The notes: generated by a model not told the origin, from the letters alone. A DNA stretch of 64,000 nucleotides from Waterburya sp. (GCA_965217895.1 CBDCJV010000002.1:1568001-1632000); one strand, 5' to 3'; positions 42,943-55,669 are shown, numbered from the stretch's first letter. Made by a program: numbers and translations.

Positions 42943-45900
42943 TCAGGGAATTAGCTTATTTGTTAAAGCTACGGCACTGCTGATAATTTTTGCCAAAGCT
43001 GAGGGGGCTTCTAGAGGGAGATTGTGACCACCAGAAACTACAACTTTGGTAGCATTGGGCATAGCTTCGTGCTGTTGGTTTAAGTCTTCTATGCGGTTAA
43101 AGCTACTTTTGTCACCGTAAACCAGCGTAATCGGTACTTTGATTTTTTTCAACAGCTTTAGATAGCGCGATCGCCCGATCCCATTTAAGCTAATACCAGC
43201 CCTAGTCCGCAATAAGGGTTCCCAACGCCATCTTACCCCGCCTTCACAAGGTTCGGTAATTCTTTCGGCTAAGATCATTGCCAAAGAATGAGTAATAGCT
43301 GGAGTGGCTTTTCTCAAACGTTTGGCTGCTGCTTCAACATTAGGAAACACTGGATGTTCTGGAGGTGCAGCCATAGAGTCTAGCTGATTAGTTAAGCTAG
43401 CTGTAGGATCATCATCTTCGTTGGCTGTAGGTAATATTGTTTCAACTAGCACAATATTTTTGATCCTTTGGGGTCTAATAGTGGCAAATATAGCTCCTAA
43501 GACCGAACCTAGAGAATGCCCCACCAAAATAAAGGCTCTACCTGCTAAATTTTCGACAACAGCGTCAATATCTCCCAAAAAGTCAATCAGATTATAAGAT
43601 CCGCCCTTGCCAACGCGATCGCTTCTGCCATGTCCTCGTAAATCTGGGGCAATTACCCGATAGCCTTTTTGCGCCAAGCGAATTGCTACTTCTGACCAAG
43701 CTGCACCCTGTTCTAAAATACCGTGTAGGCAAAGAACCAAAGGTCCTTCTTCTGGCCCCCAGGTACAGAGACATATTTTTAAGCCTCTAATAGTGATCAG
43801 AGTTTCCTCCATCAATAAATCTACTACGTCAGCATTCGCTTCTTGAGGCAGTTCGTATTTGAGTTGCTTGGCAAGTTGCCCTGAGTATGTACCTAACATA
43901 GAAGGCAATTTTATTTCTCGCCAAGTTTCGGCTAGTTCGGCATCAATCTTTTGGTGATTGAGAAAATTAGGATCGCCCAAAGACATTGCGGTATCGTTAA
44001 CTCCATCGGTCAGGCGATCGCCTTGGTAAGGAGTTAATACAGCCTCATGATAGGGAACTTCTAAGAAATTACAAATCTGGGTCATCACTGCTTGAGGCTT
44101 GCTTACCAAGTCTTCGTAATAGACTAAATGGTATCGTTCAGGGTCAATATCTTGGGCAAAGTCGAGGATATTTTGATTACTGTCGCGCCAAATTAATTCC
44201 GCAAGCTGATAGGCATCCCCATCGACCGCTCCCACCAGCTTATCCATCCGCATTCGTGCAAAGGATTCTATAACTGCGTAGGGATGACGGACTAAATGGA
44301 TATACTTGGCATTGTTAAAGATAGTTTCTGCTTTGGCTAAAGTCTCTCGGTTGCTGGCGTAGGTAGGAGATTTATCAATCAAAAGGCGATCGCCTGCTAG
44401 CTGCTGAAGCATCTGATAAGCCTCTGCTACAGAAAGATTTTCTTGGGTTAATTCTGCGACTAATGCTTGGCTTTCGGCTGCACTAATACCTTTAAGTGCC
44501 ATAAAGGCGCGTTTTAGTCCTTCCCCTAGTTGAGAAACTCCCAATTGCGCTTCTCTCTCTGCCATGTTTTCAAAAGGAAGTAAATGCAGTTCTGGAGGAG
44601 AAAATAATCCAGAATGTCCTGCTAACATGACTCTTAACAAAGTTGAACCAGAACGAGGACTAGAGAGGATAAAGGCCGCAGGGGGTAATTTAGCTTTTAA
44701 GAGATTTAATTTTGGTTGCGAACGAACTTCACTAGTTGGCTTAACTTCTTCCTCATGGGTTTTAGTAAATTCCCCAGCTAAATATTCAGCTAGATCGACA
44801 ATTTGGGGGCGTTCATAAAATTCTCTAGGATAGAGAATCAACCGTAAGTCGGTTTTTAACTGGTTGATAGCTTCCATCACCATCAATGAATCCATGCCAA
44901 TATCCAGCAGACTTGAGTTAACAGAAAGATCATCTGCCTCAATCTGAAGTATTTCGGCGAGAGCCTTTTGCAAATATTGAGTTAAATATTCTGGTCGTAG
45001 ATCGGCTTTGGTTGCCAACAATTCTGGGAAAATCAGGTTATCTGCTGGCTGATTATTATCCTTGGACTGACTAACTAATTGCGAAAAATAATTGGACTCA
45101 TTTAAATGAGCGAACTTTTGACTTAACTGCTGCCAATCTGCGCTGATAACACCCACCTGAGTTAACTCAGTAGTTAATAACTCTTCTAAAGCTGCTAATC
45201 CCGCCTGAGGATTAATCAAATCCAAGCCTTTAATCTCAACTCCTTGCTTAACCGCCATTCCGCTTTCTCCCCAAGCACCCCAATTGATGCTCAAAGCTGG
45301 TAAATTCTGACTTTGACGATAACGAGCGATCGCATCTAAGCCTGCGTTTGCCACAGTATAATTACCTTGTCCTGGTGAACCAATCAAAGAAGCAACAGAA
45401 GAGAATAAAACCAAGAAATCTAGCTCAATATCTTTGGTACAGCGATGTAGATTCCAAGCACCAGTAACTTTGGGCGCAATTACCCTATCAAATCTTGCCC
45501 AAGTTTGTCCTTGTAACAAGCCATCATCTAATATTCCCGCAGCGTGAATTACACCCTTTATTGACGACTGAGAAAAAATGTCTTTTAGTGCCTTATAGTC
45601 TGTAATATCAACCTGGACAACATTAACCTTAACCCCCTGTTTCTCTAATTCACTTATTTCCTGTTGAGCAAATTCTGATGGTTTGCTTCTACCGATTAGT
45701 AATAGATTTTTCGCTCCTTTATCTACTAGCCACTGAGCAACCTGTAATCCTAATGAACCCAAACCGCCTGTAATTAAATAAGCAGCGTCATCTTTAATTT
45801 CTAAAGTTTGCGTCGGTTTAATATTTGCTGTTTTACTTAGACGGGGTACATAAATATTTTCTTGTCGTAAAGCCAAACGATCTTCTTTATTCTTATTAGT

Positions 45901-48900
45901 AATAACCGCAAGCAAACTATCAACTTCATGAGCTTCAGGTTCGATAGCCAAGTCAACAATTCCACCCCAATATTCAGGATGTTCTATAGCGATCGCATTA
46001 GCCAATCCCCAAAGACAGCTTGATGCCAAGGCGTTACTTTGGATATTATTAGCAATATTTTGATTTCCTCTAGTAGCTAACCAAATAGGTGCAATAATCG
46101 AGTTTTGACTCAAAGCCTGAAGTAAATTTAAAATATTAGTACAGTGCTGCTGTTGATAATTATTAATTTCCTTAATAGTTGACAACTCAGGATTATCTAA
46201 GCCTGTCAAATAAATAATTCCTGCTAGTTCTTGATACTGTGTAAATAGCTGAGTAAGATTATCAGAATCGAGATGGCGATCGCTAATTAAAATACTATTT
46301 TGTTTTAACTGTGCTGCTGTTTTTGCACCTAAACCATTTGTATCTGCAAAAATTAACCAAGGTTGATTGCTTTCTTGAGCAATAACTTTGGTATTTAAAC
46401 TATTTTCATAAACTTGCCAATCTATCTGATAAAAATCAGGCTGCTTAGACTTAGACTTATCTCTAGATGGTAAAAATACCTCGACTTTACTATTAGCAGA
46501 TGTTGCTTTTTTCGTTAACCAATAGCTCTGTCTTTGGAAAGGATAAGTAGGTAAGCTAACTTTTTGTCTGCTATTTCCCCGCTCAAAACTGTGCCAGTCT
46601 ATCTCTATTCCTTTGACATATAAAGAACCTAAACTTTGTAGTATTTGCTGCCAATCTTCTTTGCGTGGACGTAAACTAGGCAACCAAAAAGTTTCAGTTT
46701 GACCCTGAGTTGATACTGAACGCCCCATTCCCAATAAGATAGGTTTTGAGCCAATTTCTAAAAAGATATTACATTCTTGCTGCAATATTTCCATTCCCTC
46801 AGCAAACCTTACTGGTGCGAGTATATGATCTATCCAGTATTGCGCCGTAGAAATTTCCGCTGTTGCTGCTTTGCCTGTAATATTAGAAATTAATTTAGTG
46901 TGAGGCAGATGATATTCAATCGACTCAGCAACCTTAGCAAAATTTTCTAAGATAGGATTCATTAAGGGCGAATGAAAAGCATGAGAAACTTTTAATTGCT
47001 TGCTCTTGATCCCTTGGGTATTAAATTTACTAATTATTGAGCGTATTGCGGTTTCTTCACCAGAAATAACAACGCTTTGATGGCTATTAATAGCTGCGAT
47101 CGCAACTTGCTCTCGAAAGGATTTGATTACTGATTTAACCGTAGTCTCATCAGCAAAAACTGCATACATCTCCCCGACTTGGGATAAGCTTTGCATTAAT
47201 TTACCCCGCGTAGCCAACAGCTTGAGTCCATCAGCCAAACTAAATACTCCAGCAACCGTAGCAGCAACGTATTCACCCACGCTATGTCCAAGTAAGGCTG
47301 ATGGTTTAATTCTCCAGTCCATCCACATCTGCGTCAAGGCGTATTCTATGGCAAAAATTGCTGGCTGAGTATAAACAGTTTCGTTAAGTAAGGATGAGGG
47401 ATGTTCGGGATATAAGACTTCAAGTAGAGGTTTTTCTAGATAGGAATCAAGAATTTCGGCACATCGATTGAGGGCTTTTTTGAATACTGGTTGGGTCTGA
47501 TATAGCTGATAACCCATGTTCACATATTGCGAACCTTGTCCTGTAAATAGAAAAGCTACCTGATTTTGATTGCTATTGCTGGTTTCACCGTAAGCAATAC
47601 CTTTAAATTGTCCTGCGGTAAAGTTAGCTAATTTATCCTGAAGCTGAGTTTTAGATTTGACAGCGATCGCCAAACGATGATTAAAATGGCTACGTCCATT
47701 ATTAGCAGTATGGCAAATATCAGCCAAAGCTATATCAGGGTTTTCTACTAGATAATCTTTATAACTTAAAACTAGATCGTTTAAAGCAGATTTGCTTTTT
47801 GCTGAAAGGGTTAATAGATGTAAAGTACGTTCAGATAATATTTCTTTCTCTCTATTCCCCACGTCCTCTAAGTCATTATCTTTTTTACTGACATCAAGTA
47901 CATCTCCTACAATTAGATGGGCATTTGTGCCACCAAAGCCAAAAGAGCTTACTCCAGCATATTTTGTGTCGCCCGAAGTTATCCACGGCTGTAACTGCTG
48001 AGGAATAGTCATGCCTGTATCAGCTAAATCTATTAAAGGATTTAGCTGCTTAAAGTGGAGATTAGGGGGAATAGCATGATGTTGCAGACAAAGTACTGTC
48101 TTAATCAAGCTAGCAATTCCTGCTGCTGATTCTAAATGTCCAATATTGGTTTTGAGTGAACCAAGATAACAAGATCGATCCTTTTCTTGACCTAAGACAG
48201 CCTTGAGAGAATTAACCTCAATCGGATCGCCCAAAGATGTCCCTGTACCGTGAGACTCCACATAGCTAATCTCGGCAGGGGAAACATTAGCATTAGCCAA
48301 AGCCTGACGAATTACCGCCTGTTGAGATAGTCCGTTAGGGGCGGTCAAACCATTGCTACGTCCATCCTGGTTAATAGCCGAACCCTTGATAACTGCTAAA
48401 ATGCGATCGCCATCTCGTTGAGCATCTGCTAACCGCTTAAGAATAACTACGCCACAGCCTTCACCACGCACATAGCCATCCGCGTCCGCATCAAAGGTTT
48501 TACAGCGTCCATCTTCTGCCATCATGCCAGCGACCGTAAAGGTTTGAGTCAGTTCAGGAGATAGCATCAAGTTAACTCCGCCTGCGATCGCCAGATTGCA
48601 TTCTCCTGTTTTTAAGCTTTGACTAGCAAGATGGAGCGCTACTAGAGACGAAGAACAAGCCGTATCTACCGCCATCGAAGGCCCTTTTAGGTCAAACAGA
48701 TAGGAAAGACGGTTTGCAGCAATGCTATGGGCATTTCCTGTGCCTACATAGGCATCAACATCTAAGTCGTAATGAAAGCGTAACTGAGAATAATCACTGC
48801 TGCTAATGCCGATAAATACGCCCGTATTGCTACCTGCTAAATTCTTATTGGCGACTCCTGCATCTTCTAAAGCTGACCAGCTAACCTCTAGTAAGAGTCT

Positions 48901-51237
48901 TTGTTGTGGATCGATACTTTGTGCCTCACGGGGAGTAATGCCAAAAAACTGCGGGTCAAACTGGTCTACATTCTCAATAAAGCCACCCCAGCTTGAATCT
49001 GACCAGCGATTGCTTTTGGCGATCGCGTCTTTGCCATCTCGCAACATTTGCCAGAATTGAGCGGGATTATTCGCCCCAGGAAAACGACAGCCAATACCTA
49101 TAATAGCTATTTCAGATTGGGTATTAGATATTCCGTAGGGTCGAACGGCTGTTTGCCCAGTTAAAATCGGGGTTGAAATATTTTCAGTTTGATTATTTGT
49201 TAGATAAACAGCAAGTTCAGCAATATTGGGATAGTCGTAAACAATAGTGGGGGACAGCTTTATATCCAGCCAGTCTTCCAACTCTGCCGATAGGCTAACT
49301 GCTGCAAGTGAACTTAAACCAGAACTGGCAAAGGGTTCATAAATGTCTATCTTTGATGCAGCTATGCCTAATTGCTGTGCCAGATTTTCAATTAACCAAT
49401 TTTGAATTTGATCCTGTTTTCGATCAAACCCCGTAGGGGCGAACGGCTGTTCGCCCCTACCATTATTTGGTTGTGATAAACGACCGTCTTCTGCCAGCGA
49501 TTTATATTCCCCAACAACATCCAAACTGCCATCTAAATATCGAGCTTTACAAGCATGACGCTGTATCTTTCCGCTAGAAGTTTTAGGGATACCGCCTGTT
49601 TTGAGCAATATGATAGCGTGGATTTGTAGTTCATGATTTTGAGCTACTGCTTGCAGAATTGCCTTAGTAACCTCATCTACATCAAGCTTACGCAGATAAG
49701 TCCGTTTAATTTCTGCGGTGACAACTAGCTTTTCTTCTCCTGCAACTTCCACAGCAAAAGCGGCTACATTACCTGCTCGAATTGCTTCATGGGCAAGATC
49801 TAAAGTTAGTTCAATGTCTTGAGGATAATAATTGCGTCCACGAATAATAATTAAATCTTTCAAACGCCCTGTAACAAATAGCTCTCCTGCTTGTAAAAAG
49901 CCTAAATCTCCTGTACGTAACCATCCTGATTCTTGAGTGTCGGCTAATACTGCATTAAAGCTAGTAGCTGTAAGTTCATCTAGACCCCAGTAGCCTTGGG
50001 CTATACTATCGCTTTTTGCCCAAATTTCTCCAATTTCGACCTCTGAACATTTTGTTAGAGTCTGGGGATTAACAATAACCAGTCTTTGTCCTGGAAGATT
50101 GCGCCCACTACTAACCAAAGTAGTTTTATTTTCTGCATTGCTAGTAGCAACGGCGAGGTTTTCTTCAAGTTTTTGAGTGTCAAAGCTGGCGGTAACTGGC
50201 TTTTGATGCTTATCTCCTGCTGTAATCAGGAGAGTAGATTCTGCCATGCCATAGCTAGGATAAAAAGCTGCCGTGCGAAAACCACAGTCGCGAAAGTATT
50301 CACTAAAACGCTCAATAGTTTCGGCTCTGACTGGCTCTGCACCTGAAAAAGCTAGTTCCCAGCAACTTAAATCTAGGTTGGCTTTTTGTTCGGCAGTAAT
50401 GCGATCGACACAAAGATCGTAGGCAAAATTAGGCCCTCCATTAGTTACCCCTCTATAACGAGAAATTGCCTGTAACCAACGGTAAGGACGCTGTAAAAAG
50501 GTTACAGGAGCCATTAAATACATCGATAACCCAACATACATTGGTTGGACAATACAGCCAATTAAACCCAAGTCATGGTATGGAGGCAGCCAAGAAACGG
50601 CAGTGTGTTTCCGTTCATTTTGGAAACAATGATTGATTGTGGCGGAGTTAGCCATTAAATTGCCATGACTGACCATCACGCCCTTAGGTCTACCTGTTGA
50701 ACCACTGGTATATTGCAAAAAAGCTAAATTTTTTGGGGTGATCTCTGGATGCTGCCAAGCTGAAGATAGATTAAGTTCAAAAGTATCAGTGGCGATAAAT
50801 CTTACTTTTGAACTAGCATTGTGATTAGCAAACTTGCTAGCAACTTGCTCCCGAATCAATTTGGTCGTTAAAGCAAAACTTGCCTCCGCATCGGTAACGA
50901 TCGCTATTAAACGTTCAAGCGAACGATTGGCACGGGGTGGATAAACGGGAACAGCTACCACTCCCGCGTATAAGCAACCCAAGAAAGCCGTAATAAAATC
51001 TAATCCTGGCTGGTATAGCAACAATGCTCTTTGCCCCTGAGCATTATGGCTTTGCAACACAGAAGCGATCGCCTTAGCTTTTTCATTCAATTGTTGATAT
51101 GTGAGACTATCTATTTCAGTCTCACCATCGGCTAAAAAAGTAAACGCCCTTTTATTAGGCTGAATACTCGCTTGTTCTTGTAATCGTTGTACCAGGGTTA
51201 TTTGCTTGCTCAATCGTTTCCTCTCTTTGCCACCCAC
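42943..51237 (-). CDS. ols: Olefin synthase, type I PKS FAAL-ACP-KS-AT-KR-ACP-sulfotransferase-thioesterase (1-alkene synthesis)
   Basis: QYTSGSTG; GLSSL ACP; DTACSSS and HGTGT KS; GHSVG and HAFH AT; GGLGSLG KR; GMDSL ACP; SPRSGSTL ST; GHSLG TE. Confidence 0.95.
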   Translation of the reverse strand: MGGKERKRLSKQITLVQRLQEQASIQPNKRAFTFLADGETEIDSLTYQQLNEKAKAIASVLQSHNAQGQRALLLYQPGLDFITAFLGCLYAGVVAVPVYPPRANRSLERLIAIVTDAEASFALTTKLIREQVASKFANHNASSKVRFIATDTFELNLSSAWQHPEITPKNLAFLQYTSGSTGRPKGVMVSHGNLMANSATINHCFQNERKHTAVSWLPPYHDLGLIGCIVQPMYVGLSMYLMAPVTFLQRPYRWLQAISRYRGVTNGGPNFAYDLCVDRITAEQKANLDLSCWELAFSGAEPVRAETIERFSEYFRDCGFRTAAFYPSYGMAESTLLITAGDKHQKPVTASFDTQKLEENLAVATSNAENKTTLVSSGRNLPGQRLVIVNPQTLTKCSEVEIGEIWAKSDSIAQGYWGLDELTATSFNAVLADTQESGWLRTGDLGFLQAGELFVTGRLKDLIIIRGRNYYPQDIELTLDLAHEAIRAGNVAAFAVEVAGEEKLVVTAEIKRTYLRKLDVDEVTKAILQAVAQNHELQIHAIILLKTGGIPKTSSGKIQRHACKARYLDGSLDVVGEYKSLAEDGRLSQPNNGRGEQPFAPTGFDRKQDQIQNWLIENLAQQLGIAASKIDIYEPFASSGLSSLAAVSLSAELEDWLDIKLSPTIVYDYPNIAELAVYLTNNQTENISTPILTGQTAVRPYGISNTQSEIAIIGIGCRFPGANNPAQFWQMLRDGKDAIAKSNRWSDSSWGGFIENVDQFDPQFFGITPREAQSIDPQQRLLLEVSWSALEDAGVANKNLAGSNTGVFIGISSSDYSQLRFHYDLDVDAYVGTGNAHSIAANRLSYLFDLKGPSMAVDTACSSSLVALHLASQSLKTGECNLAIAGGVNLMLSPELTQTFTVAGMMAEDGRCKTFDADADGYVRGEGCGVVILKRLADAQRDGDRILAVIKGSAINQDGRSNGLTAPNGLSQQAVIRQALANANVSPAEISYVESHGTGTSLGDPIEVNSLKAVLGQEKDRSCYLGSLKTNIGHLESAAGIASLIKTVLCLQHHAIPPNLHFKQLNPLIDLADTGMTIPQQLQPWITSGDTKYAGVSSFGFGGTNAHLIVGDVLDVSKKDNDLEDVGNREKEILSERTLHLLTLSAKSKSALNDLVLSYKDYLVENPDIALADICHTANNGRSHFNHRLAIAVKSKTQLQDKLANFTAGQFKGIAYGETSNSNQNQVAFLFTGQGSQYVNMGYQLYQTQPVFKKALNRCAEILDSYLEKPLLEVLYPEHPSSLLNETVYTQPAIFAIEYALTQMWMDWRIKPSALLGHSVGEYVAATVAGVFSLADGLKLLATRGKLMQSLSQVGEMYAVFADETTVKSVIKSFREQVAIAAINSHQSVVISGEETAIRSIISKFNTQGIKSKQLKVSHAFHSPLMNPILENFAKVAESIEYHLPHTKLISNITGKAATAEISTAQYWIDHILAPVRFAEGMEILQQECNIFLEIGSKPILLGMGRSVSTQGQTETFWLPSLRPRKEDWQQILQSLGSLYVKGIEIDWHSFERGNSRQKVSLPTYPFQRQSYWLTKKATSANSKVEVFLPSRDKSKSKQPDFYQIDWQVYENSLNTKVIAQESNQPWLIFADTNGLGAKTAAQLKQNSILISDRHLDSDNLTQLFTQYQELAGIIYLTGLDNPELSTIKEINNYQQQHCTNILNLLQALSQNSIIAPIWLATRGNQNIANNIQSNALASSCLWGLANAIAIEHPEYWGGIVDLAIEPEAHEVDSLLAVITNKNKEDRLALRQENIYVPRLSKTANIKPTQTLEIKDDAAYLITGGLGSLGLQVAQWLVDKGAKNLLLIGRSKPSEFAQQEISELEKQGVKVNVVQVDITDYKALKDIFSQSSIKGVIHAAGILDDGLLQGQTWARFDRVIAPKVTGAWNLHRCTKDIELDFLVLFSSVASLIGSPGQGNYTVANAGLDAIARYRQSQNLPALSINWGAWGESGMAVKQGVEIKGLDLINPQAGLAALEELLTTELTQVGVISADWQQLSQKFAHLNESNYFSQLVSQSKDNNQPADNLIFPELLATKADLRPEYLTQYLQKALAEILQIEADDLSVNSSLLDIGMDSLMVMEAINQLKTDLRLILYPREFYERPQIVDLAEYLAGEFTKTHEEEVKPTSEVRSQPKLNLLKAKLPPAAFILSSPRSGSTLLRVMLAGHSGLFSPPELHLLPFENMAEREAQLGVSQLGEGLKRAFMALKGISAAESQALVAELTQENLSVAEAYQMLQQLAGDRLLIDKSPTYASNRETLAKAETIFNNAKYIHLVRHPYAVIESFARMRMDKLVGAVDGDAYQLAELIWRDSNQNILDFAQDIDPERYHLVYYEDLVSKPQAVMTQICNFLEVPYHEAVLTPYQGDRLTDGVNDTAMSLGDPNFLNHQKIDAELAETWREIKLPSMLGTYSGQLAKQLKYELPQEANADVVDLLMEETLITIRGLKICLCTWGPEEGPLVLCLHGILEQGAAWSEVAIRLAQKGYRVIAPDLRGHGRSDRVGKGGSYNLIDFLGDIDAVVENLAGRAFILVGHSLGSVLGAIFATIRPQRIKNIVLVETILPTANEDDDPTASLTNQLDSMAAPPEHPVFPNVEAAAKRLRKATPAITHSLAMILAERITEPCEGGVRWRWEPLLRTRAGISLNGIGRSRYLKLLKKIKVPITLVYGDKSSFNRIEDLNQQHEAMPNATKVVVSGGHNLPLEAPSALAKIISSAVALTNKLIP
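49135..49460. repeat. Two REP-like palindromes inside ols linkers flanking ACP1 (49135-49161, 49433-49460)
   Basis: GTAGGGTCGAACGGCTGTTTGCCCAGT and GTAGGGGCGAACGGCTGTTCGCCCCTAC. Confidence 0.85.
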
Positions 51238-51371
51238 GAAGCTAGGTATATATCTAGCTTATCCAAAAGCGAGAGATGTTTGTTAATCTCGCTGATGAAT
51301 TAAATATTCTCAGACAAAGAATAACCGATAAAGGTATAAAAACATAGTAAGACTTTAAAGGTTAGTCTTAT

Positions 51372-51551: not shown

Positions 51552-51890
51552 TTAAAGGTTATTTGCTATGCGAGTAATACCGTTTTTGATTAAGTCGGTG
51601 TTGAAGTTGATTAATAAACCCAAACGTTTGTTAGTCAGACGGAGATAAGTTAATAGTTGCTTCTTATGAACTGGGGCGATATGTTCTACAGACTTTAACT
51701 CAACAATTACCAGATTTTCTACAATAAAATCTGCCCTAAAACCTTCCCCCAAGTGCATTCCTTCATACACCACAGGAATAGGCTTTTGCCGTTCAAACCT
51801 CAACCCTCGCTTTTGCAACTCATAAGCCATTACCGCTTCATACACCGACTCCAACAAACCTGCACCCAATCTTGTATGGATAGCGATCGC
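51552..51890 (-). pseudogene. GxxExxY (PD-(D/E)XK-like) protein, N-terminally truncated at a HIP1 site
   Basis: AIAIHTRLGAGLLESVYE...RADFIVE...VELKSVE...GLLINF; in-frame TAA two codons upstream of GCGATCGC. Confidence 0.85.
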
Positions 51891-51961
51891 TAATTAAAGA
51901 AAGGTGATTGAATCTTCCCTTTCAACTGACCTTGGGCAATTACCCAATTACCATATGTGCC

Positions 51962-52021
51962 TTTTAACGCTTGAGTTAATCGACTCTGCAAGGCGATGTC
52001 GGCTTGGATGAATTGTTAGAT
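51962..52021 (-). mobile_element. Integron attC site (60 bp, 59-base-element type)
   Basis: ATCTAAC-AATTCATCCAAGCCGAC-ATCGCCTTGCAGA-GTCGATTAACTCAAGC-GTTAAAA. Confidence 0.85.
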
Positions 52022-52332
52022 GCACTCGACGCGCTGCCAGAACGCCAAGTCTTAATCGCAGCAATGACACGCGCCCCGTGCGATGAAGAAAGATCCCGAT
52101 CTTTAAATATCGACTGGCTAGCTATGAGGATCGGCGCACTGTTCTGAATCTGCTGAGCCAGCCAAGTTAGGTAGCTTCTACCAGTCTGACCATACTCCCG
52201 TATCTCTTCAGAGCTAAGTTCGATTAGGAAACTGTAGTCAACCATGCTAAGACTGCAATTTGTATCAAGGAGCAGTGAATCGGCATCGCGAAGCAGAAAC
52301 CATGTATGTGGTTCATGGTCAAGAACATTCAT
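51976..52332 (-). CDS. Hypothetical gene-cassette protein reading into its attC
   Basis: AGGAG RBS; appears GC-richer than flanks; last codons encoded by the attC. Confidence 0.7.
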   Translation of the reverse strand: MNVLDHEPHTWFLLRDADSLLLDTNCSLSMVDYSFLIELSSEEIREYGQTGRSYLTWLAQQIQNSAPILIASQSIFKDRDLSSSHGARVIAAIKTWRSGSASSASNNSSKPTSPCRVD

Positions 52333-52447
52333 TACTGCGCTCCTAATTATTCCACAATAGTTCCATTATCTATTATATGGTTTTGTCAGTCACAATCAGC
52401 ACCAACGGATAACTTTCAGGCTACTATCTTAACCCAGAAACGAAGCC

Positions 52448-52519
52448 AGCTAACGAACAAACTCACCAGCGGTAAGGAAGCGTAGCGGAATTGCCGTCTA
52501 GTGCAGTGTCTTGTTAGCC
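52448..52519 (-). mobile_element. Integron attC site (72 bp)
   Basis: GGCTAAC-AAGACACTGCAC-TAGACGGCAATTCCGCTACGCTTCCTTACCGCTG-GTGAGTTTGTTC-GTTAGCT; the upstream gene's TAA lies in the R'' box. Confidence 0.85.
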
Positions 52520-53146
52520 TGTTTTTCTGCACTCAACCCCAAGACAATTTTCCCATCTGTCTTTGTCTTCTACTGTTTGAAAAAATGGATCAGATGAATC
52601 TCCGAAATAAGCTCTTCTTATTTCAATATAACCCGCATCTTCAAGTTCTCGTGCAATTGACTTGAAATCCCACATCCAAAGGTGCTGCGAATTCCCAAGC
52701 CATGTGCTAAGAATACCTTTTAGCCCCCTCGCTCGTCTTTCATGACCAAGGCAGGTCTCTCCCATAAACTCCAAAGCTGCGCTATTTGAGGGATTATCCT
52801 TATATTTTCTGATTGAATATTCCAAATCTGGCAACACGAAGCGAAACACTCCACTAGCCCTTAAAATTCTTTTTGTTTTACGTAACGCTATTCTAAAATC
52901 ATTAAGAGAAAGATGCTCAAGAACGTGAGAACAATAAACTCCTTCACATGAATCTGGCACTATTGGTAAGCCTTTGACAATATCACCGTACTCCACATTG
53001 TTTGGGAATCGAGATTCATTTTTCGTATACAGACCACCTATGAGTGGTAATCTTTCGAAACGTAGTGCAGGAGAGGCATCGAAATTTCGCCACTGGTTAG
53101 GTGCAGACCATCCACACCCATATTGAACATACTTACTCTCTCTCAT
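52514..53146 (-). CDS. Class I SAM-dependent methyltransferase-domain cassette protein
   Basis: VQYGCG, WRNFD, YCSHVLEHL, RILRASGVFRFVLPDL. Confidence 0.85.
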   Translation of the reverse strand: MRESKYVQYGCGWSAPNQWRNFDASPALRFERLPLIGGLYTKNESRFPNNVEYGDIVKGLPIVPDSCEGVYCSHVLEHLSLNDFRIALRKTKRILRASGVFRFVLPDLEYSIRKYKDNPSNSAALEFMGETCLGHERRARGLKGILSTWLGNSQHLWMWDFKSIARELEDAGYIEIRRAYFGDSSDPFFQTVEDKDRWENCLGVECRKTG

Positions 53147-53726
53147 CCTGTTGGTTTCCTTGTTTGAAGGCTAGTTATTTATTCGGAAACTTTCTGAATA
53201 TCAACCCTATGTGGGACAAGAAACAGGAACTTGCCATATATTTACCCTGTACATGGTGATATCGTGAAACTTTCGGTATATTCGTCAATGATATGCCGAC
53301 TTTTTCTGGATGTCATTTGTTTTTAATCGTGTGGGTAGAGGCGTAAGAAGTCCTCTCAATCCTTGAAAATTTTAATTAGAAGGATTGAAGAGATCGTAAA
53401 CGAAGCAGAAATATCAAGAGTCTTTAATTAGAGATTAGCGAGATAACGATGTTTTTTCAATTTTTATTTTATATTCTCTCCTGTATCATAAAGAGATCGC
53501 CCCAAAGCCCATAGCCAATTCAAGTAAAGTAGCTGTGCAGCAATTTCTTTAATTTTTTCTTTTATGGCTGGGGTCAAATCATCGAGAGTCATGGCGACAT
53601 TTCAAGGGAACTAGATTAATTTTAACGACTCACATAAACATTTTTTGTAACAGACTTTTTGTCTTTTAGTATTGTTTTCTATTTGCTCGATAGCTAGATT
53701 CTTTAGTAAACGGTAAAGTCAAATAA

Positions 53727-55136
53727 TGAACTACTCACACTAAATCAAAGATTTAGAATGAGTTTCTAGCTTCGCTGGGTGCTGCCTTACCTTGGTCTTT
53801 CGACCCCGATCTGGTCTTACGCTCCCTTCACTAGCAGAGACGGCTGTTCCATCCGTCTTTATTATCCTGATGCCTTCTGCTCTGATATTTCGACTTGCAG
53901 CTTCATCCCGATCATGAGTTTTACCGCATGAAGTATTCAAACAAGTCCATTCTCTAATACTCAGATCCATCTTTGGAGTTTGAGTTAGACAATCAGGACA
54001 GATATGAGATGAGGGAAACCATCTGTCTATCTCAACCAGGCGTTTATCTTCCCGCTCTAATTTATAGTCTAGAAAGTTTACGAACATTCCCCACCCAACA
54101 TCAGATATAGCTTTGGCTAATTTGTGGTTACGCACCATGCCTTTCACATTGATATTTTCTATCACAATGACTTTGCTTTCGTTTGTCAATTTTCTACTCA
54201 ACTTGTGTAAGAAATCTTGACGGGCATTACTTATGCGTGCATGAACCTTAGCTACTAATTTTTTGGCTTTTTGTCTGGTTTTACTACCCTTCTGCTTTCT
54301 AGATAATTTTTGTTGTTTACGAGCCAGATTTTTCTCATGCTTTTTAAAGTGTCTAGGATTAGCATACTTGCTAGTCTTAGTCCCATCATGAGCTATACAA
54401 AAATCCTTGATTCCTAGATCTAAGCCAATTATCTTGTCACCGTTGCCAGATACAAAGCAAGCTTCTAGTTCATAGAGAATCGAAGCAAAATATCGATCTG
54501 AACTATCTTTGGTTATAGTTACAGTCTTGATTGTGCCAACATAGCGACGGTCAAATACTGCTTTAACTAATCCAATTTTAGGTAACTTAATCCAGCCTCC
54601 ATCAATTTTTACTGACTGAGGGAAACCAACAGACTGCTTACCATGCTTAGATTTGTATCTAGGAAATCTAGCTCGTTTTTCAAAGAAATTGATAAAAGCA
54701 CGAGACAGATTGAGTGATGTCTGTTGCAGTGATTGAGAATAAACTTCTGTTCTCAACCATTCATGTTCTTTTTTTAGATTAGGCAGCAAAGCATTTAGTC
54801 CTGCACGAGATAGTCCTTTGCCTGTCTCTTTGTAGGTTTCAATACTTTTATTGAGAGCAAAATTCCACCACCAACGAGAACAACCCATAGCACCTGCTAA
54901 TTGCTGTTTTTGCTCGTCAGTCGGATAAATTCGTACTTTCTGTGCTTGTCTAATCATGTCTACCATTATATAATAAAGTGATAGAACTGCGCTAGATAAT
55001 TAATTCTGCGACGCACTCTGGTCTTGGCGGTTTCCGCCGAGGAAGAAGTGCGTCAAGAAGCTTAGTGTCTAGCTCGATTCATCTCCTCCTAAATTCCCAT
55101 CCTTTAAACTTAGAAGGAGAATTCTCTCACAATCCG
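53727..55136 (-). mobile_element. tnpB-only IS200/IS605-family element (IS1341-like); boundaries approximate
   Basis: Left-end hairpin 55083-55119 after TTTAA; right-end hairpin ACTCA-TTCTAAATC-ttt-GATTTAGTG-TGAGT then AGTTCA; no tnpA. Confidence 0.8.
53740..54966 (-). CDS. tnpB: RNA-guided endonuclease TnpB
   Basis: HTH N-terminus (RIYPTDEQ), RuvC GLDLG / IVIENINVKGM / HDRD, zinc finger CPDC...C..C. Confidence 0.95.
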   Translation of the reverse strand: MVDMIRQAQKVRIYPTDEQKQQLAGAMGCSRWWWNFALNKSIETYKETGKGLSRAGLNALLPNLKKEHEWLRTEVYSQSLQQTSLNLSRAFINFFEKRARFPRYKSKHGKQSVGFPQSVKIDGGWIKLPKIGLVKAVFDRRYVGTIKTVTITKDSSDRYFASILYELEACFVSGNGDKIIGLDLGIKDFCIAHDGTKTSKYANPRHFKKHEKNLARKQQKLSRKQKGSKTRQKAKKLVAKVHARISNARQDFLHKLSRKLTNESKVIVIENINVKGMVRNHKLAKAISDVGWGMFVNFLDYKLEREDKRLVEIDRWFPSSHICPDCLTQTPKMDLSIREWTCLNTSCGKTHDRDEAASRNIRAEGIRIIKTDGTAVSASEGSVRPDRGRKTKVRQHPAKLETHSKSLI

Positions 55137-55183
55137 TTAAAATCAATAAAAATTTTAGCTATTGTTTTGAATTTATCGACATA

Positions 55184-55669
55184 ATGAAGCAGAAATACCA
55201 AGACTTTGTAGTCAGAGATTGGCAGAAAAGCGATCGCACCGCAGCAGCAGAAGTAATTAGAACGGTATTAGAGGAATATGGTTTGCCTTGGCAGCCACAA
55301 TTGGCAGACCTCGATGTGATTGAAGTTGAGTCGGCTTATTTAGAAACTGGAGGGGAATTTTGGGTAGTTGAGAAAAATTCGACTATAGTAGGCACGGCAG
55401 CATATCAACCCATAAGTAGAGGACAAAAGGCTGTTGAAATTCGCAAAATGTACTTATTACCAAAGGTTAGAGGCAAGGGATTGGGTAAATATTTATTGCG
55501 GGAGTTAGAAAAAGCGATCGCTATTAAAGATTATCAAGAAATTTGGCTGGAAACTGCATCTATATTAAAAGAGGCAGTAATATTATACGAACGCAGTGGC
55601 TATCAACCTGTCAATGATGTGGAAACAGAAAGATGTGATTTAGCTTATCTTAAAAAAATACATCCTTAG
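55184..55669 (+). CDS. GNAT-family N-acetyltransferase
   Basis: EIRKMYLLPKVRGKGLG, LETASILKEAVILYERSGY. Confidence 0.93.
   Translation: MKQKYQDFVVRDWQKSDRTAAAEVIRTVLEEYGLPWQPQLADLDVIEVESAYLETGGEFWVVEKNSTIVGTAAYQPISRGQKAVEIRKMYLLPKVRGKGLGKYLLRELEKAIAIKDYQEIWLETASILKEAVILYERSGYQPVNDVETERCDLAYLKKIHP

Follow-up and report, generated by a model that had tools for sequence, protein, structure and literature searches.

A cyanobacterial chromosomal integron in Waterburya sp. that has probably died in place, leaving two cassettes, an attI region and the last codons of its integrase gene

How does a cyanobacterial chromosome come to carry gene cassettes with no integrase beside them? A 64,000-nucleotide stretch of DNA from Waterburya sp. 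(GCA_965217895.1 CBDCJV010000002.1:1568001-1632000), hereafter the window, raises this question. It lies on the 5.2-Mb chromosome of a genome that is 99.9% complete and has a GC content of 39%. Reading down the minus strand from position 53175, a methyltransferase-like open reading frame (ORF) is followed by a 72-bp palindrome, a 118-aa ORF (ORF2), a 60-bp palindrome, and then a GxxExxY gene. An earlier note, made from the sequence alone, took the palindromes for the attC sites of an integrase-less cassette cluster whose members had been mobilised in trans or by uptake of foreign DNA. Both attC sites are real and lie on the minus strand at the positions given there. The mode of capture is a different matter, and we conclude, with a probability of about 0.9, that the element is a cyanobacterial chromosomal integron that died in place. 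Its features are collected in Table 1.

Table 1. Features of the element and its flanks, in window coordinates.
Feature	Position	Strand	Basis or remark
GxxExxY gene, lacking its first ~11 codons	51552..51890	-	TIGR04256, 136 bits; flank, not a cassette
HIP1 octamer at the element's left junction	51883..51890		Sequence; break in GxxExxY homology
Tail after the last attC	51891..51967	-	Final 23 bp like array tails of G063 and G051
attC2, 60 bp, aadA1/qacF type, decayed	51962..52021	-	46/60 to aadA1 attC; covariance models 14.2 and 22.0 bits
Cassette 2 ORF (ORF2), 118 aa, unnamed family of ~100-106 aa	51976..52332	-	Reads into attC2, stop within at 51976
attC1, 72 bp, structurally intact	52448..52519	-	Covariance models 42.8 (R1) and 61.3 bits (R2); folding probability 0.4
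Cassette 1 ORF, 210-aa class I SAM-dependent methyltransferase-like	52514..53146	-	PF08241, 23.9 bits (cut-off 21.2)
attI/cassette 1 crossover core, mutated	53169..53175	-	ACTAGCC, compared with GTTAGCC in G220
attI and intI upstream region	53171..53316	+	83% over 146 bp to DNA upstream of the intact G060 intI
intI 3' stub, last 15 codons and stop	53319..53366	+	83% over 52 bp to the G060 intI end
GNAT gene start (first ~50 bp), decayed copy	53399..53450	+	79% over 53 bp to 55183-55234
tnpB, IS605-family, 408 aa	53740..54966	-	PF01385, PF07282, PF12323; neighbour outside the integron
GNAT acetyltransferase gene, resident, full-length	55184..55669	+	PF00583; flank

The attC architecture consists of R'' and R' cores of the forms RYYYAAC and GTTRRRY, paired L boxes, extrahelical bases and a bottom-strand hairpin, and the 72-bp site (attC1) displays it throughout. 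Its boxes, read from 52519 to 52448, are R'' GGCTAAC and R' GTTAGCT, with six of seven R pairs and six of seven L pairs formed and extrahelical bases present, and the stop codon TAA of the methyltransferase gene does fall within the R'' box, as had been noticed. We evaluated both sites with two covariance models, which are small and home-made and are not those of IntegronFinder. Model R1 was built from 16 attC sites (13 from cyanobacterial loci and three of class 1) that were chosen by a box-pairing script and by eye; the window's sites were left out, and the model favours the attC type of 84-93 bp. With R1, attC1 scores 42.8 bits, far above chance (E 7.8e-8 in the window and 6.5e-6 genome-wide), and it also shares the top score in a home-made box-pairing scan of the 5.2-Mb chromosome. 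Model R2 was trained on 13 short sites that include aadA1, qacF and two attC1-type sites chosen for their likeness to the window, and tests with it are partly circular. The recombinogenic bottom-strand fold has a computed probability of 0.4 for attC1 and of 0.18-0.7 for five short controls; the values for two long cyanobacterial controls were disregarded because their L-box register was misassigned. Sites of the attC1 type also occur in G220, a cyanobacterium of another family, and on one plasmid each of Citrobacter and Geoalkalibacter. We conclude that attC1 is a real, structurally intact attC site, and its recombination by IntI is predicted. On plasmid pLNU-11 (L204:3156-4481), a group II intron maturase lies directly before an attC1-type site with an altered R'' box, an arrangement that resembles attC-targeting introns.

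The 60-bp site (attC2) has the boxes R'' ATCTAAC and R' GTTAAAA, read from 52021 to 51962. Its proposed resemblance to the aadA-type 59-base element is borne out by identity at 46 of 60 positions with the aadA1 attC and by a BLAST match in a plasmid collection (80.7% over 57 bp, E 4e-5) that starts where aadA1 ends, but taken alone the site is weak. With R1 it is the second match in the window at only 14.2 bits (E 0.3), compared with 47.8 bits for the aadA1 attC, which is itself outside the training set. With R2 it reaches 22.0 bits, which corresponds to E 0.0035 in the window and to a non-significant 0.3 genome-wide. Even so, attC1 and attC2 are the top two matches in the window with both models. 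In its 60-bp length, its R/L box layout and its bottom-strand extrahelical G, attC2 is like the class 1 aadA1/qacF sites, but three of its seven L-box pairs are no longer Watson-Crick pairs, the recombinogenic hairpin is not predicted to form (computed probability 1e-8, compared with 0.27 for the aadA1 attC), and the gene ahead of it, unlike those of class 1 aadA1 cassettes, is not a resistance gene. We regard attC2 as a real but decayed attC of the aadA type, for which recombination by IntI is predicted to be lost. A search of the window at Rfam gathering thresholds gave no matches. Could the palindromes instead be fortuitous, or terminator-like repeats behind genes of vertical descent? The unremarkable z-scores of both sites in unconstrained folding (-0.1 to -1.05) would fit, but this notion has practically no chance of being right and is refuted by the covariance-model score, the box geometry, the extrahelical bases, the twin cassette in G220 and the absence of the cassettes from relatives.

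Both sites are clearly of types other than the native one, because 39 of the 50 attC sites collected around the integrons of this family (40 of the 44 matches of a cyanobacterial scan after removing duplicates, plus ten from the window's chromosome) measure 84-93 bp. Short attC sites are present in other cyanobacterial arrays too, and the aadA likeness of attC2 therefore does not imply a clinical or proteobacterial plasmid donor. The tail beyond attC2 resembles those of two cyanobacterial arrays, with 95.7% identity over 23 bp (E 2.9e-4 among the fetched cyanobacterial loci).

The cassette genes are likewise foreign to the lineage. Neither was found in the 60 family relatives searched, four of which gave short matches only, two of those to attC1, and vertical inheritance in a syntenic setting does not describe them. 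The methyltransferase occurs in six of 401 cyanobacterial genomes, its own included. Its closest cyanobacterial counterpart, in G220, belongs to the same cassette, with 78% DNA identity through the attC; there the cassette is the first at attI and begins with GTTAGCC, complementary to its own R'' GGCTAAC. This twin (L207, G220:C30) is split by an insertion of ~240 bp, and its attI has no adjoining intI. We scanned 85 loci of methyltransferase relatives for attC sites (40 of 80 from genomes, 40 of 80 from metagenomes, and five from cyanobacteria), and 84 had none, G220 being the sole match; the gene family is mostly not cassette-borne. The two best relatives without a cassette sit in glycosyltransferase clusters, and for this reason a surface polysaccharide or similar small acceptor would be the most likely substrate, at roughly even odds. 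One such cluster (L007) holds a relative with 78% identity and no attC. In another (L008:1934-1986, Thiocystis MAG), a decayed sequence resembling attC1 comes after a relative with 74% identity; either a cassette has become established among biosynthetic genes there, or the sequence records how a cassette is formed. Comparison of the methyltransferase with PDB structures gave one weak match (E 0.005), and it belongs to no NCBIfam or PADLOC family.

ORF2 has 264 relatives at E<=0.001 but no Pfam, NCBIfam or PADLOC family of its own, and 65 of the family's members have no Pfam family in common. A word-based homolog search recovered only ORF2 itself, and its Atlas neighbours are unnamed clusters, mostly from Pseudomonadota (scores 0.90-0.93). 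It was found in two of 401 cyanobacterial genomes, its own included, and in two of 401 genomes of a proteobacterial draw. One relative, in G742, ends at an attC-like match within an array of four; the other three of the four loci scanned (L293, L319 and L323) had no attC match. The predicted structure is confident (pLDDT 93), with no Foldseek match at E<=0.001 and a best VIA Z of 3.9, values that indicate neither a new nor a known fold. Each gene does end in a palindrome, as had been proposed, but ORF2 reads on into attC2 and stops inside it. Both ORFs are still open. No cassette promoter rises above chance in the window: four matches were found where 4.6 are expected, including one minus-strand match at 10 of 12 positions (53316-53288).

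The origin of the array is visible in the DNA ahead of the first cassette. A cyanobacterium of the same genus (G060) has an intact IntI (TIGR02249, 472 bits, cut-off 265), and DNA like that upstream of its intI and like the end of its intI (the latter at 53318-53369) lies side by side in the window. The stub reads VFNRVGRGVRSPLNP-stop, which is the IntI C-terminus. A single base separates the two pieces in the window, compared with 960 bp in G060, and by this comparison ~960 bp of intI have been deleted. G060 carries TCATG on both sides of the missing segment, which suggests a deletion by microhomology between short TCAT(G) repeats. The genome encodes no IntI above the TIGR02249 cut-off, and the window has no match at E<=0.001. 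The earlier description as integrase-less is accurate for an intact recombinase, but an attI region and intI 3' stub occupy 53169-53366, partly within the very interval so described.

Across the attI regions collected, sequence is shared on the intI side of the core, while the cassette side varies among the 25 distinct ones, which is the mark of a true crossover point. The first cassette of the window starts exactly at this native core, with the intI stub in the expected divergent orientation, and each of the two cassettes starts at a GTTRRRY-type core and ends in an attC, all in one orientation. The core itself has since changed: GTT is kept in nine of ten other aligned attI regions, and the window has ACT and lacks three bases. 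The attI-intI spacer, in the window as in the 25 attI regions of relatives, is filled by a repeated 23-bp imperfect palindrome, ATATCCAGAAA-N-TTTCTGGATAT, of which three copies are recognisable here (53179, 53259 and 53291). These palindromes are candidates for accessory IntI sites or a dedicated operator. A genome-wide regulator box was considered and rejected, since matrix scores above 19 are confined to four attI loci of the chromosome. The palindrome has no apparent likeness to the cyanobacterial LexA box.

A first cassette docked in a native attI, next to a remnant of the integrase gene, means that loss of the resident integrase explains the cluster, and it overturns the earlier proposal of capture in trans at an orphan site. 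Under the orphan reading, cassettes would have entered a non-att site (attG) through the action of an integrase whose gene lay elsewhere or was present only in passing. Such insertion has been published (10.1101/2022.09.11.507474), the genome is without an intact intI, and several single attC sites in the chromosome have no adjoining attI-like match (e.g. C2:283746 and 3262053). However, attG insertion requires neither an exact attI core nor a divergent intI stub, and the window has both. A trans origin is thereby refuted for the insertion site and survives, as a very improbable alternative overall, only in the form of an IntI from another copy acting on this attI once its own intI had been deleted; given the mutated core, such action is unlikely in the array as it now stands.

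How does such an element compare with known integron classes? By the operational definition of a CALIN (two or more attC sites no further than 4 kb apart, with no integrase nearby) it is one, with attC1 and attC2 427 bp apart and only a 15-codon stub of intI, although this call rests on home-made models and IntegronFinder might score attC2 below its threshold. The CALIN label of the earlier note, with its two differing, non-native attC types and foreign cassettes, can therefore be kept. The array is like the CALIN that arise by intI loss in the accounts of Cury et al. 2016 (PMC4889954) and Neron et al. 2022 (PMC9024848), with two attC sites on the same strand and no intact integrase, and it corresponds to the dead integron, mechanism (iii) of Cury et al., as in Xanthomonas. 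The pseudogene test described there needs half of the profile and placed pseudogenes near only 15 of 279 CALIN; a 15-codon stub would escape it, whereas here the origin is visible. In the sedentary integrons of Xanthomonas, as reported in 10.1101/2025.06.18.660453, intI has been lost by frameshifts, stops or large deletions and a short array is left frozen. The window is alike in this respect, but almost every Xanthomonas genome has its intI in one place, downstream of ilvD, whereas the 21 intI ends studied here lie at about 17 loci, and single genomes have several copies of the platform (attI and intI). It is consequently not a sedentary chromosomal integron in the sense of a locus conserved across the genus. 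Nor does it belong to the mobile classes 1-5, which have a class-type IntI and a transposon or plasmid location, since it is chromosomal and its platform matches native cyanobacterial integrons. It resembles a SALIN or attG insertion (10.1101/2022.09.11.507474) in being a short chromosomal array without an integrase, but it sits at a true attI. A complete integron would retain an intact intI; of that architecture, the window keeps attI with a first cassette at its (mutated) core.

Chromosomal integrons of cyanobacteria are already known (PMC4889954, PMC2426708, PMC8618304) and have an attC type and model of their own (PMC8352920), and about a third to 46% of intI genes have been reported inactive (PMC2426708, PMC3108266). 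As far as the accessible text of the four former papers goes, the attI sequence, the 23-bp palindromes, the many loci and the HIP1 junctions discussed below are not among the features they describe. We found no earlier description of the platform in the literature searched, which was mostly outside subscription journals, and the supplements of PMC4889954 and PMC8352920 may list such genomes or sites. The element itself is an ordinary decayed integron.

The platform recurs widely. DNA like 53160-53400 is present in 34 of 61 family genomes, with up to ten matches per genome, and IntI exceeds the cut-off in eight of the 61 and is full length in four. One full-length IntI (L110, G014:C174) is unlike the others of the family and lies on a short contig, possibly a contamination of that assembly. 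Among the fetched loci, 21 distinct intI 3' ends adjoin about 17 different downstream regions, shared ones having been merged by us. The window's own chromosome (G000:C2) has six platform pieces at five loci, five of them besides the window's piece, and eight attC matches. At G000:C2:1074450-1078330, two platforms lie side by side. The first consists of attI, a 5'-half intI pseudogene, two cassettes and then an IS630-like gene; the second has an attI-like sequence, an intI end and a GNAT start fragment that ends exactly at HIP1. The two cassettes of the former are presumably glyoxalase-like. Further attI pieces, an intI scrap and single attC sites occur at G000:C2:1691500-1692700, 3673250-3675150, 3794570-3795710, 283746 and 3262053, and two of these loci carry what we take to be BrnT/BrnA-like toxin-antitoxin pairs.

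The platform is not ancestral at the window's locus. Upstream of GNAT, none of the 12 loci examined in relatives has an attI or intI match, although one genome (G017) retains ~25 bp of the post-intI spacer. In eight of the 12, the upstream gene is one that we take to be miaE-like, an arrangement that differs from the window's, and this presumed miaE-like gene has no tblastn match in the whole genome. For these reasons the GNAT locus was rejected as the ancestral integron site of the genus. The tnpB gene flanks the array on one side only; it is intact, has no adjoining tnpA ORF, and separates the GNAT fragment from the full GNAT gene. On the other side, beyond the GxxExxY gene, the window encodes a polyketide synthase of 2,764 aa (42943-51237), whose domain order, from the sequence, we presume to be olefin-synthase-like. 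A public contig covers 51415-55247 without differences, but it probably stems from the source sample and so argues only against mis-assembly. A joint 53373-55181 was considered as a deletion variant and rejected, since its letters are those of a paralogous piece at C2:1077450.

The way in which the platform reached this locus may be recorded in the octamer HIP1, GCGATCGC, which occurs once per ~900 bp in the genome. In all seven relatives' copies of the GxxExxY gene examined, the start is intact and resemblance to the window sets in at the position of the HIP1, which none of the seven has there. On the opposite side, the GNAT fragment of the window ends at the position of the GNAT gene's HIP1 (near 53445), and the same joint of intI end and GNAT start is found at C2:1077478 and in G069. 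The absence of HIP1 from the cassettes, which the earlier note had remarked upon, extends from 51891 to 55229, but 1,555 bp without HIP1 are expected by chance with p 0.18, too weak alone for us to accept it as proof of foreign origin.

Beyond the death of this integron, one further proposal, an addition to the main explanation and not a replacement for it, is possible but doubtful: attI-intI with its cassettes would move as a block between loci and strains by recombination at HIP1, and then decay. The route would be natural transformation followed by illegitimate or site-specific recombination at HIP1 octamers, and the window would hold one insertion bounded by the HIP1 at 51883 and the HIP1 position of the GNAT fragment near 53445. 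Published work associates HIP1 with deletion and with recombination of plasmids (PMC13756078, PMC4390886), and in another report the octamer raises transformation (10.1101/2024.09.10.611283). The proposal accords with the many loci at which intI ends are found, with the GxxExxY gene cut at HIP1, and with the GNAT fragment at C2:1077385, which ends exactly with the octamer. A HIP1 (7/8 or better) lies +18 to +36 past the intI stop in seven of the 21 ends, compared with 4.0% of 3,383 ordinary ORFs, but the other 14 have no good HIP1 at that place, the site at +28 may be a single inherited one in kin that are not independent, and identity before and after it (0.57 and 0.49) differs little from a control of 0.47 +/- 0.08. 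Similarly, an exact HIP1 follows within 100 bp (<=100 bp) of the last attC in ten of 34 cases, compared with none of 14 internal attC sites and 10.4% of random positions, where 'last' means no further model match within 2.5 kb and two more cases had too little sequence. This excess shrinks to eight of 32 (p 0.03) when shared tails are collapsed, and cassette DNA without HIP1 would yield 0/14 internal sites either way. In two pairs, array tails agree as far as a HIP1, beyond which the resemblance is lost. In the tails of L190, L149, L309 and L151, short HIP1-delimited segments recur after the last attC in differing order, like shuffled tiles.

Other evidence speaks against movement at HIP1. Gene order is generally scrambled in the genus. 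Upstream of the polyketide synthase gene, four different neighbours were seen among five relatives, the window's neighbour in none, and no HIP1 marks the breaks there (51350-51361). The GNAT fragment of G069 continues ~25 bp beyond HIP1, no clean empty site was found, and low-copy duplications in the chromosome have a terminal HIP1 in common at only 12 of 374 ends, which is still about four times the expectation, partly through alignment bias. It is consequently no better than a tentative and rather unlikely generalization that the integrons of this family are neither sedentary nor transposon-borne and that their platform hops by HIP1-junction recombination during natural transformation. On this reading the hopping platform would have a fixed HIP1 ~28 bp past the intI stop and HIP1-ended tails, and would capture a few cassettes before intI is deleted.

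The history of the integron that died in place can be sketched from established integron biology. For each cassette, the resident IntI would have bound the attC in its folded bottom-strand form and placed the cassette at attI, the unnamed-protein cassette presumably first and the methyltransferase cassette last, hence nearest attI. Later, ~960 bp of intI were lost, apparently between the TCAT(G) repeats, the attI core mutated and the attC2 fold decayed. The platform probably arrived at this locus, or was trimmed there, by recombination with HIP1 junctions, a step proposed with less assurance, and the platform as a whole may have passed between cyanobacteria through DNA uptake. No order is implied among the deletion, the core mutation and the arrival. 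In its present state the array should be unable to gain more cassettes. Excision of cassette 2 through attC1 x attC2 would be unlikely even with an integrase in trans, attC2 being unfoldable, and both ORFs would remain as fixed accessory genes.

A CALIN can thus conceal an attI and a 15-codon intI stub from profile searches, and integrase loss may be a commoner origin of CALIN than the published figure of 95% without intI pseudogenes suggests. For cyanobacteria, the conserved attI sequence offers a direct probe for such concealed losses. Should the pattern of HIP1 junctions hold, it would link the transposon-free movement of chromosomal integrons with what HIP1 does. If platforms do hop in this way, several frozen mini-arrays would be left per genome, and the process would represent a third mode of integron mobility and give HIP1 a genomic function. 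With the intact G060 integrase, the attI consensus and attC1 at hand, the points about integrase loss and HIP1 can be tested in model cyanobacteria.
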